Assembly (NCBI GenBank): GCA_964016885.1
Contig: OZ024748.1
Span: 32,674,001 to 32,738,000 of the forward strand
Direction: 5' to 3'
Length of the DNA stretch: 64,000 nucleotides
Source of the DNA: Eledone cirrhosa
Lineage: Eukaryota
Under the pieces are notes generated by a model. The model was not told the DNA's origin. It did not search any database and saw nothing but the letters and a program-made list of their open reading frames with translations. Positions 13,662 to 30,157 of this stretch are shown here, piece by piece (within the stretch, counting starts at the first letter, position 1; the number at the start of each line of letters is the position of its first letter). The translations under genes were made by a program, and so were the position numbers.

Positions 13662-14246
13662 ATAAAATGATTTGAACATAGCTTTGATTATTGTGTAATT
13701 TATATTCTGGCTCTGTAAAACATCTCAAGTATTTACATTGAGCTATTTTTCTTACTGGTAATAAGGTAGTAATGAATTACTGGCCTTTCCTGTTTATAGT
13801 TGTATATAGTGTATACATAACTATAAATAATATTATTATTATATATATATATATATATAAGTATGTATGTATAGGTACATACATATATGTATACAGACGT
13901 ACAGTAGCATGTATATATATATATGTATATATATATATATATATATATATATATATACATATATATATATATATATACATACAGGCACACATATATATAT
14001 GTACGTAACAGTTTATCGAACATTATTATAATGTTCGCTTTGTCCGTTTCTTTACAGACGGACAGCCTGATTTACGCCGTACAGTGTTCAGGCAACCACG
14101 TCAGCTTTTTGTTCAACACTGACACAGGAACGATGTACTAGTTTCAAGCTTGTTAGCTTTCGCCAGCACCGTATAGCTTTCTGCCAGATGGTTGAACGTT
14201 CGAAAGTATATACTTTCATTATGAAAATTAACGGCTGAGCAGCCTA

Positions 14247-14254
14247 ATTTGCAT
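14247..14254. promoter_or_regulatory. Octamer motif ATTTGCAT, present in most monomers (representative copy)
   Basis: cctaATTTGCATatc lies ~80 nt upstream of the HHR on the HHR strand. Function untested. Confidence 0.35.
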
Positions 14255-16488
14255 ATCGAGTGAGTTCAGTCGGCCAGGCGCACCAAAAACGATAAAAGGA
14301 ATAGAATGAAACGAAATTTCATTTCTCACTCTTAGTGTGGCACTTACTTAAATGTAAGTATGTATGTATACGTACATACATATATGTATACAGACGTACA
14401 GTAGCATGTATATATATATATATATATATATATATATATATATACATACAGGCACACATATATATATGTACGTAATAGTTTATCGAACATTTATTATAAT
14501 GTTCGCTTTGTTCGTTTGTAAACAAACGGACAGCCTGATTTACGCCGTACAGTGTTCAGGCAACCACGTCACCTTTTTTCCTCAACACTGACACAGGAAC
14601 GATGTACTAGTTTCAAGCTTGTTAGCTATCGCCAGCACCGTATAGCTTTCTGCCAGATGGTTGAACGTTCGAAAGTATATACTTTCATTATGAAAATTAA
14701 CGGCTGAGCAGCCTAATTTGCATATCGAGTAAGTTCAGTCGGCCAGGCGCACCGAAAACAATAAATGGAATAGAATGAAACGAAATTTAATTTCTCACTC
14801 TTAGTACGGCACTTACTTAAATGTAAGTATGTATGTATACGCACATACATATATGTATACAGACGTACAGTAGCATGTATATATATATATATATATATAC
14901 ATACAGGCACACATATATACATGTACGTATCAGTTTACCGAACATTTATTATAATCTTCGCTTTGTTCGTTTGTAAACAAACGGAGTGCCTGATTTACGC
15001 CGTACAGTGTTCAGGCAACCACGTCGCCTTTTTGTTCAACACTGACACAGGTACGATGTACTAGTTTCAAGCTTGTTAACTCTCGTCAGCACCGTATACC
15101 TTTCTGCCAGATGGTTGAACGTTAGAAAGTATATACTTTCCTAATGAAAATTAACGGCTGAACAGCATAATCTGCATATCGAGTTAGTTCAGTCGGCCAG
15201 GCGCACCGAAAACGATAAATGGAATAGAATGAAACGAAATTTCATTTCTCACTCTTAGTACGGCACTTACTTAAATGTAAGTATGTATGTATACGTACAT
15301 ACATATATGTATAGAGACGTACAGTAGCATGTATATATATATATATATATATATATATATATATATATATATATATATATATATATATATACAGGCACAC
15401 ATATATATATGTACGTATCAGTTTACCGAACATTTATCATAATGTTCGCTTTGTTCGTTTGTAAACAAACGGACAGCCTGATTTACGGCGTACAGTGTTC
15501 AGGCAACCACGTCACCTTTTTGTTCAACACTGACACAGGAACGATGTACTAGTTTCAAACTTGTTAGCTATCGTCAGCACCGTATACCATTCTGCCAGAT
15601 GGTTAAACGTTCGAAAGTATATACTTTCCTCATGAAAATTAACGGCTGAGCAGCCTAATTTGCATATCGATGAGTTCAGTCGGCCAGGCGCACCGAAAAC
15701 GATAAATGGAATAGAATGAAACGAAATTTCATTTCTCACTCTTAGTACGGCACTTACTTAAATGTAAGTATGTATGTATACGCACATACATATATGTATA
15801 CAGACGTACAGTAGCATGTATATATATATATGTATATATATATATTTATATATATATATATATATATATATATATATATATATATATATATATACATACA
15901 GGCACAGATATATACATGTACGTATCAGTTTATCAAACATTTATTATAATGTTCGCTTTGTTCGTTTGTAAACAAACGGACAGCCTGATTTACGCCGTAC
16001 AGTGTTCAGGCAACCACGTCACCTTTTTGTTCAACACTGACACAGGAACGATGTACTAGTTTCAAACTTGTTAGCTATCGTCAGCACCGTATACCATTCT
16101 GCCAGATGGTTGAACGTTCGAAAGTATATACTTTCCTTATGAAAATTAACGGCTGAGCAGCCTAATTTGCATATCGATGAGTTCAGTCGGCTAGGCGCAC
16201 CGAAAACGATAAAAGGAATAGAATGAAACGAAATTTCATTTCCCTCTCTTAGTACGGCACTTACTTATATGTAAGTATGTATGTATACTTACATACATAT
16301 ATGTATAGAGATATACAGTAGCATGTATATATATATATACAGGCACACATATATATATGTACGTATCAGTTTACCGAACATTTATTATAATGTTTGCTTT
16401 GTTCGTTTGTAAACAAACGGACAGCCTGATTTACGCCGTACAGTGTTCAGGCAACCACGTCACCTTTTTGTTCAACACTGACACAGGA

Positions 16489-28345: not shown

Positions 28346-28388
28346 ACGGTGCTGACGATAGCTAAGAAGCTTGAAACTAGTACATCGT
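28346..28388 (+). ncRNA. Array hammerhead in an inverted monomer
   Basis: acggtg-CTGACGA-tagct-aaga-agctt-GAAA-ctag-TA-catcgt read directly on the plus strand. Another copy lies at 27890-27930. Confidence 0.8.
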
Positions 28389-30157
28389 TCCTGTGTCAAT
28401 GTTGAACAAAAAGGTGACGTGGTTGCCTGAACACTGTACGACGTAAATGAGGCTGTCCGTTTGTTTACAAACGAACAAAGCGAACATTATAATAAATGTT
28501 CGGTAAACTGATACGTACATATATATATGTGTGCCTGTATGTATATATATATATATATATATATATATATATATATATATATATATATATATATATATAT
28601 ATATATATATGCTACTGTACGTCTGTATACATATAAGGTATGTACGTATACATACATACTTACATTTAAGTAAGTGCCGTACTAAGAGTGAGAAATGAAA
28701 TTTCGTTTCATTCTATTCCATATATATATATATATATATATATATATATATATATATATATATATATATATATATATGTTGACGTGTATATAATTGCATT
28801 TGTATATTTAATTTTAAATTTCCTGGCCTAGTATGAATAACAATTTCTAGATGGTTTATAACACAAACTATGGAAAATTTAGTCAGAAATATTTTAAAAA
28901 TAAAACATAATACATTAGTGAATAAAACGTAATAATGATAAAAATTGTTGAATTACCTTGAAAATATTTATTTATTAGCTAGAAGATATTTATTTAGCCA
29001 GAGATTTTACTGGAAATATTTATATATTAGGTTGATATGTGGTCTAAAATATATATATTGTCTATAATTGACTGATAGCAGATGTTCCGGTGAAATAGTA
29101 GTTTTACTACTACAGATTGTAATGGAACTCTTAGTAGACACAATTGTAAAGTAAGAATAGATATGACAGTGTAAGACTGGTGTACGGGAAAGAAAATTGT
29201 TTGTATATATATATAATTGTTACACAAGATATAATTAGATTAATTAAAGTTATAATTGTTTCTACTTTTGGCACAAGGCCAGCAATTATCCTGTGCATTA
29301 CTGGTACTTTATTTTATCGAAATGAAGACAGCAGGTACACGGTATCGTTGGGAATGTTTCAACTCTCATACCTACCGGTGTCATACGTTAAAAGCCCCTG
29401 ATATAATTTAATGCATTCAGACACAGTTCCAATCGTATTTAATTAATTGTAAATCACAAAGTATCACTCAGTAAAATATCAATTATATATCAATAAGAGA
29501 ACCTCTACGTAGTCTCAGTGACTGCTAGAAATAGCAGCGATATTATCCATTTCAACTTAGTTTTTTCTGTTTAAAATCTCCAAAGTTTAGTTATACAATC
29601 AACAGCAAGCCTTTTGTACAGACTTCGGAATAAACTGGAAGACCGTAAAAATATCATTCTCCTTCTCTCTCTCTTTAAGCAAAGAATCGTTGCTTTCACC
29701 CTTAACGGGATCTTTTGAAACTCATTATTTTAATAAATAGTTGCCCTACGGCTTATATATACATATATATATATATATTATCCTTATCGAGCCCCCTCCG
29801 GATTATGGTATATATATATATATATATATATATATATATATATATATATATATATATATATATATATATTTCGTTTCTGAATTTGTTTAGCAAGATTCTT
29901 TATCTGAAAACGTGTGTTGAAACCGATATTGTTATACTTTGAGAGGGTCATGTTGCTAATAAGAAACACACGCACCTGTTGCTTTGACTTCAATTTATTA
30001 TAATAAATTTATAAATTTAGGAATTTATAAATTTCCGTTCCACAACCAGATGATTGTTTATATATTGTCAAAGTTCTTTCGTCACACATTCTGTGTGTAT
30101 ATATATATATATATTAATTCAAAATATTAACAAAATAGATATTCTTGTGATCAAGTA

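Follow-up and report, generated by a model that had tools for sequence, protein, structure and literature searches.

Metazoan non-long terminal repeat (non-LTR) retrozymes are non-coding tandem units a few hundred bp long, with a GC content below 50%, each with one type I hammerhead ribozyme, which occur as dispersed short and long arrays in genomes where Penelope-like elements (PLEs) coexist with them (PMC7229834; 10.64898/2026.07.22.740005). Published families have units of 51-972 bp and comprise up to 300 units (10.64898/2026.07.22.740005). Two questions about animal retrozymes are still open, namely their mode of transcription and the retroelement responsible for their movement: PLEs are given no more than the status of strong candidates for mobilisation in the 2020 paper (PMC7229834), and a 2026 preprint argues for a PLE link from the similarity of pseudo-LTRs (pLTRs; 10.64898/2026.07.22.740005). 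Here we analyse a stretch of 64,000 nucleotides from Eledone cirrhosa (assembly GCA_964016885.1, contig OZ024748.1, positions 32,674,001 to 32,738,000; referred to as the window, with positions counted from its first nucleotide), which carries at 13858-28725 an array of hammerhead-bearing units. As a 15-kb hammerhead satellite the array is of a known kind, its size and length lying inside the published ranges, and its sequence identifies it as a large member locus of a non-LTR retrozyme family with dispersed copies. It differs from the metazoan families, as far as the accessible parts of those reports describe them, in the inverted-copy, one-sided-tail ends and (TA)n targeting typical of PLEs, and in U6-type promoter-like boxes, whereas according to a review retrozymes seem to have no promoters (PMC7761336). 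With a probability of roughly 0.8, we read the family as non-autonomous and mobilised in trans by a PLE reverse transcriptase (RT)/GIY-YIG protein that targets (TA)n. A literature search returned no paper on a cephalopod retrozyme.

Endonuclease-bearing PLEs (Hydra, Neptune and the Anolis element PAc) leave a characteristic signature, in which one copy is inverted and 5'-truncated, only one end bears a tail and the targets are microsatellites (PMC8557442), and have a hammerhead in their terminal repeat; in PAc, the tail corresponds to the sequence that separates two internal sites of RT initiation (PMC11167929). The array shares these traits but differs in that its unit has no open reading frame (ORF), its tail measures ~55-60 nt rather than the 30-40 nt given for PLEs, and no sequence link from the unit to an autonomous family was found in the loci and PLE families described below. 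A precedent for transcription is offered by the SINE-like Sm-alpha hammerhead repeats of Schistosoma, where an RNA polymerase III (Pol III) promoter lies upstream of the hammerhead, so that each unit drives transcription of its neighbour and copies must stand in tandem (PMC6765202), the same logic that we propose for the array units. Newt satellite transcripts are reported in the same source as products of RNA polymerase II (Pol II).

Layout of the array and its dispersed relatives

The whole insertion (13858-28725) lies inside a (TA)n tract and contains 24 hammerhead sites. Its main tandem run (13858-27516), on the minus strand, holds 22 of them, is interrupted by a nested element and terminates in a short 3' end at ~13858 that runs into (TA)n. 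An inverted 5'-truncated block on the plus strand (27513-28725) holds the other two (27917 and 28373) and terminates at ~28720-28725 in a long 3' end with a tail of ~55-60 nt running into (TA)29. The earlier note on this DNA had described about 24 minus-strand monomers in a 15-kb satellite; all 24 sites have the layout it gave and the array is real, but two sites lie on the plus strand, in the inverted block, and a foreign insertion nested at 16801-19400 accounts for 2.6 kb of the span. Uninterrupted units measure 441-665 nt from cleavage to cleavage, in agreement with the ~440-660 nt anticipated, and 418-445 nt without (TA)n runs. Nearly all of the length variation comes from the internal variable (TA)n that had been pointed out (26766-26795 in one example), which in 3/3 units folded forms the apex of a long hairpin; the unit at 23008-23407 is partial. 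The monomer had been called long for a metazoan retrozyme, which the published range of 51-972 bp contradicts. Unit GC is 0.28-0.37, and the only ORFs of at least 90 aa in the array are low-complexity frames derived from (TA)n, so that the absence of coding capacity holds. No LTR-interior-LTR layout is visible, no search for a primer-binding site or polypurine tract having been made.

Each unit has the same module order: promoter-like boxes, hammerhead, body with the (TA)n hairpin, short end, tail of ~55-60 nt, long end and oligo-T. In one example the tail, bounded by the short and the long insertion end, which would correspond to two RT starts, lies at 26651-26711 on the minus strand and is followed by a T4 run at 26643-26646 on the same strand. 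Predicted folding of circular units does not discriminate between the strands (z -4.3 to -7.0 for the ribozyme strand and -3.4 to -6.3 for the other, 25 shuffles each).

The unit belongs to a family spread over many contigs. A 251-nt query of the array's subfamily (A) gave 1520 first-look candidates in the 3.0-Gb genome and 41 scored matches, 40 of them 96-100% identical, with 96-97% copies on C1-C6 and C12. A sister subfamily (B), likewise on many contigs, gave 2375 candidates and 42 scored matches, its copies being 95-97% identical. The two candidate sets overlap and cannot be read as copy numbers, and since the best matches were chosen as loci for study, the sample leans towards intact copies; most of these loci hold one to five units within the ~3.3 kb examined. 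In the window, a separate subfamily B insertion (5904-6732, minus strand; 73-87% identical by region) is nested in the 3' untranslated region (UTR) of an older GIY-YIG PLE. These copies were considered as old ones, a view rejected on the 95-97% identity within this parallel subfamily. A lone inverted long-end fragment of the array's family, adjoining a long (TA)n tract, is found at 3559-3694 (plus strand). In nine multi-unit loci of subfamily A, there is no mixing of sub-lineages within an insertion (3 recurrent against 107 rarer within-locus differences), as expected if units were identical at insertion.

Insertion ends and Penelope-like elements

The 3' ends were classified in 44 loci and the array (L020, which overlaps L019, was omitted). 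They occupy two positions, the short end following the TA-rich hairpin and the long end extending the unit by another ~55-60 nt. Exactly one 3' end per strand is present in 24/45 loci, and 23 of these 24 combine a long with a short end, the remaining one having two short ends; among the other 21 loci, 16 show one end, 3 none and 2 other patterns. The ends run into (TA)3 or longer in 62/69 cases, and (TA)4 or longer occurs in 61/86 flanks compared with 231/1558 background windows. The array obeys the same rule, with its long end (28725) on the inverted block and its short end at 13858. The insertions are therefore built from tandem copies joined to a 5'-truncated copy in inverted orientation, and they have a long end on one side and a short end on the other, which supports the PLE-type mobilisation suggested earlier and, with the dispersed copies and the intact consecutive hammerhead units, the identification as a retrozyme. 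No target-site duplication was detected between the flanks of the 44 loci, where (TA)n targets hide short duplications. The 50 5' junctions are scattered over the length of the unit, 17 falling upstream of the predicted transcription start, and the template must therefore hold whole units, as a circle or an uncut multimer would. From this end architecture, the family very probably behaves as a PLE-dependent non-autonomous element.

Which PLE might act as the partner was addressed from the elements in and around the array. The earlier note had suggested possible mobilisation by a PLE RT/GIY-YIG like that of the flanking remnants. However, the GIY-YIG remnant at 6644-7510 ends in its own terminal repeat and has a different hammerhead; it was rejected as the parent, as 0/19 other copies of its family lead into the array unit. 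The nested element (16801-19400) is an inverted pair of Hydra-clade PLE 3' ends, inserted in the internal (TA)n of a unit, with a 99.1% self-match over 16913-19400 and a one-sided tail of ~110 nt. Its family has at least 40 near-identical 3' segments and an intact copy (L157:2444-4765) with an open 773-aa ORF that contains RWK, DKT, a CxCX5C linker, CxxC and CxH motifs; assignment to the Hydra clade is based on these motifs and on (TA)n insertion, set against the description of the clade, and a Pfam search of the 773-aa ORF gave no match. This family (L144-L158) is very young; its 3' UTR is unusually long, and its hammerhead-like motif (17062, 19251) is atypical. It shares its target and architecture with the array unit but no sequence; this young, intact PLE is the best candidate donor.

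The same comparisons bear on whether the units are the pLTRs of an autonomous PLE, mostly inserted without its ORF. Such an origin would agree with the PLE-like ends and with the frog survey, in which 24/57 retrozyme families match known repeats, nearly all of them PLEs (10.64898/2026.07.22.740005). It is nonetheless improbable: no ORF-bearing sequence is joined to the unit and no junction flank is shared in the 44 loci, two flanks with PLE protein matches being separate insertions beyond the (TA)n; unit sequence is absent from the terminal repeats of the ORF-bearing PLEs in both families examined (GIY-YIG and Hydra), and these families have different ends.

Further PLE remnants cluster at (TA)n tracts in the window (1880-3200, 6644-7510, 7710 and 10563-11378); they include two GIY-YIG pieces, one RT piece and hammerhead-like motifs at 2929 and 7710.

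The hammerhead ribozyme and the history of the array

Each site consists of a 6-bp helix I position, CUGACGA, a 4-bp helix II with U·U at its base, GAAA, the palindrome ACUAGU and a GUA triplet. A representative type I hammerhead lies at 26487-26529 (minus strand; predicted cut after 26493; one helix I mismatch), and the copy at 26945-26987 is intact. The core CUGANGA is intact in 18/24 sites and U10.1·U11.1 is present in 22/24, both in line with the earlier note, and 22/24 have the GUA triplet. Core and both helices are intact together in 12/24 sites, with consecutive intact runs such as 16504-15068. The minimal type I motif was recovered in 0/5000 shuffled monomers, both strands being scanned. 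Helix III had been described as the palindrome only; the palindrome is there, but it pairs as a single A·U closing a CUAG loop, because a 2-nt loop cannot form. The proposed check against Rfam Hammerhead_1 was negative: no hammerhead family is found among the best 150 of 309 matches for the window or among the 9 matches up to E=10 for one unit, the top matches being hairpin or (TA)n artefacts that are all below gathering scores. A miss by this model is plausible for a 1-bp helix III.

Conservation of the core was assessed at several depths. Between subfamilies A and B, fixed differences number 0 in the 12 core and 4 loop-III positions, compared with 9/102 and 35/122 elsewhere; in helix I, a G·U is exchanged for a U·G. 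Single-copy changes amount to 1.1% in the core against 2.3-2.9% elsewhere (one unit per locus). A third, distant family is represented at L078:1-625 (plus strand), next to a U1 gene array; it has a ~465-nt unit with the same tail, the same 12-mer (see below) at a spacing of 40, a canonical hammerhead and an end in T5 + (TA)n. Despite a background identity of 58%, the L078 relative keeps 11/11 core positions, and its helices, only ~50% identical, are fully paired, with G-C at the helix II base and a GUC triplet. Overall, 5/14 helix pairs have changed on both sides (0/500 shuffles).

The energetics point to a ribozyme that would act as a dimer, as had been supposed, the swapped dimer being predicted at -19.0 kcal/mol compared with -1.1 for one closed monomer. 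Axolotl retrozymes show each weak feature separately: in HHR_Amex1, helix III is reduced to 1 bp under a palindromic tetraloop and cleavage improves in the dimer, and HHR_Amex2, with the same U·U, cleaves 22% as a monomer and far more as a dimer (PMC7229834). The array ribozyme differs in having both features at once, and cleavage should therefore need dimers and may be slow. The U·U, which had been suggested as possibly lowering activity, is a fixed state of the family (78/79 intact cores) with a cleaving precedent in axolotl. The conservation and covariation indicate that the hammerhead has been under selection; that it is still active is moderately probable.

The array has a history of its own. 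Fifty-one variants are common to at least two units, and only 3 of them occur in dispersed copies; higher-order repeats are apparent (21235 = 19802; 25074, 22174 and 20272; 25520, 22626 and 20727), and the array reduces to ~15 lineages, ~2.8% from the majority sequence. Probably, local duplication enlarged an array that was already long when first inserted, and unequal crossing-over at an early stage may also have taken place. Duplications of this kind, like the lack of an Rfam hammerhead match, are what an ordinary satellite propagated by unequal crossing-over would show, its hammerhead-like motif being due to chance or irrelevant. That account is extremely improbable: short insertions with fixed ends are scattered over many chromosomes and their end architecture already contradicts it, the motif is absent from shuffled monomers, and helix changes are compensatory.

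Promoter-like boxes and the proposed cycle

Upstream of the ribozyme, each unit carries TATGCAAATTAG and, 41 nt on, GTATATAC; both are exact in 17/23 units. In the example unit, a 12-mer resembling a proximal sequence element (PSE) lies at 26601-26612 (minus strand; exact in 19/23 units) and a TATA-like box at 26563-26570 (minus strand; exact in 21/23), 41 nt after the octamer start in 23/23 units. The 12-mer is identical, at 12/12 positions, to the box upstream of a host U6 gene (L042) and of two tRNA-Sec genes (L117 and L118). The host genes for U6 (three types), U6atac and RNase MRP carry the 12-mer between -76 and -78, with GTATA at -31, and the two tRNA-Sec genes, which lie outside the training set, have it at -79; several further U6/U6atac matches, in which the boxes are missing or split by an insertion, were treated as pseudogenes. 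The unit and these type 3 Pol III promoters share the 12-mer, the GTATA box, their order and a downstream oligo-T. A matrix derived from five host promoters gives the unit 26.6 bits, above all 2000 shuffles, and over 534 genomic chunks it reaches 25 bits or more only in host promoters, one family copy and L078. A Pol II small nuclear RNA (snRNA)-type promoter was rejected, as the U1 and U2 upstream regions do not contain the 12-mer. Newt satellite 2 has an snRNA-type promoter, and that of Sm-alpha is of the tRNA type, with internal boxes; the array boxes differ from the latter in resembling a gene-external type 3 promoter, and the ends of the array family differ in being PLE-type. A literature search returned no description of a retrozyme with a U6-type promoter, older and possibly relevant papers lying outside its reach.

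A second hammerhead family carries the same kind of module. It is represented in the window by an inverted pair at 5430-5840, with a ~310-nt unit, the same 12-mer and TATA module and a spacing of 42; it has 1760 candidates, the palindrome AUGCAU, two fixed ends and inverted insertions (L123-L141). The family was found via its ribozyme, and no similarity of its body to the array family was detected. The other host variant of the 12-mer is followed by TATA at 42 nt in 15/16 of its copies, the module order is that of the array units, a T6 run stands at the long end, and in both families the predicted start falls just before the ribozyme. At 5528-5580 (minus strand), ~50 nt of subfamily B, spanning the ribozyme cut site, are fused at a family-2 inversion junction, which suggests template switching between family-2 and subfamily B RNAs. 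Between zinc-finger genes, two further hammerhead-like motifs form an inverted pair (40361, minus strand; 40444, plus strand), in which helix II is long and a real helix III is present.

We propose that transcription would start at the upstream boxes of a unit, or that the array would be read through from outside; that read-through multimers would be cut by hammerhead pairs sharing the ACUAGU helix; and that the ~440-nt monomers would be ligated to circles. A PLE protein would nick both strands of a (TA)n target, and reverse transcription, templated by a circle or an uncut multimer, would begin at the two sites on either side of the tail; such a two-site start would produce the inverted-plus-tandem structure. 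The array locus would have begun with many units (~15 lineages) and then undergone local multi-unit duplications. More speculatively, and with odds clearly below even, the boxes would be a host U6-type promoter captured and retuned by bringing them half a helical turn closer, so that units fire themselves, read-through of oligo-T yields multimers, dimeric cleavage yields promoter-bearing circles, and a Hydra-clade PLE rolls from two starts into (TA)n, including that of earlier units, the module being shared by at least three families. One lead towards a circle, a 478-nt contig closing on the monomer in run X5, was set aside as no evidence for a circle: the run type is unclear and a collapsed tandem repeat looks alike. 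Runs X2 and X3 contain many monomer variants, and X1 touches only the TA-rich part.

The points that weigh against this reading concern its template, its donor and its promoter. The 5' junctions do not pile up at the cut site or at the predicted start (4 and 4 of 50), cleavage is dispensable for PAc insertion in vitro (PMC11167929), two weak ribozyme features, the 1-bp helix III and the U·U in helix II, are combined, and only 1/9 Xenopus retrozyme dimers cleaved, 8/9 remaining uncleaved (10.64898/2026.07.22.740005). These four points also favour a variant in which the same PLE-type mobilisation uses an uncut read-through multimer, the hammerhead cutting rarely or never and no circles accumulating. 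We regard this variant as rather unlikely: the core and palindrome are unchanged between the subfamilies and in L078, HHR_Amex2 cleaves despite its U·U, and a circular template also predicts no pile-up. In addition, the unconstrained two-strand minimum (-20.9 kcal/mol) is a fold other than the active dimer, most helix covariation rests on the one distant copy L078, and the within-locus distance in subfamily B (4.1%) is not below that between loci (3.4%), with 21 recurrent differences. As to the donor, no autonomous PLE with the same tail was found in the 44 loci, the GIY-YIG family or the Hydra family.

As to the promoter, box spacing is 40-42 nt in the putative boxes of the repeats and 45-47 in 7/7 host genes, and insect Pol III promoters hold this spacing within 1-2 bp (PMC1761439); spacing can decide the polymerase, as in plants (PMC9652321). 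In subfamily B, a T5-T6 run precedes the long end by a few bases. Because T runs would halt Pol III before the boxes are copied, read-through is needed. The first T4 or longer run falls at the tail end in 4/4 units examined, as it does in 75-585/1000 shuffles, so that avoidance of T4 is not significant in these four units. Both the spacing, 4-7 nt below all 7 host genes, and the oligo-T runs fit an alternative for the promoter step only, in which the boxes are the relic of a captured Pol III promoter, or a plain octamer site next to a palindrome, with no transcription (or Pol II transcription) from them and with read-through from outside being needed. It is further favoured by the box region, whose 0/20 differences are not significant alone, the surroundings being conserved too (9/102), and by the third family, whose match to the 12-mer is not independent because L078 was found by a 12-mer search. 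Set against it are the module in 15/16 copies of the ribozyme-found second family, the predicted start just before the ribozyme in both families, and the rarity of the 12-mer elsewhere, with only 4/143 occurrences in the 563 kb examined lying outside these repeats and host Pol III loci. We consider this alternative evenly balanced, and initiation from the boxes just before the unit's own hammerhead, as the proposed cycle would have it, a shade less probable than an even chance.

The host genes themselves display a promoter grammar: in the U6 class (L041-L046, L080, L081, L117 and L118) the 12-mer lies between -76 and -79 and TATA at -31, and U1/U2 (L056-L079) instead have AATTA at ~-90, TCAGT at ~-57 and a TATA-like box at ~-32. 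In a tandem U6 array (L047, L048, L050-L053), some copies have a ~175-nt repeat between the TATA box and the gene. Elsewhere in the window, a tandem cluster of C2H2 zinc-finger ORFs, several of them frameshifted, occupies 39267-57000 and 63139-64000; zinc-finger ORFs lie inside duplicated blocks (~33.6-36 kb and 44.7-47 kb), and a 46-bp minisatellite of 34 copies (91% matches) lies at 59357-60914.

The host promoter grammar is of use for guide-RNA expression in this lineage. For animal retrozymes, the family offers a PLE priming footprint, a host-defined candidate promoter and an intact young PLE protein in one genome, and both their transcription and their mobilisation therefore become directly testable. 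If the promoter works, the unit would be a compact natural cassette for circular RNA production.

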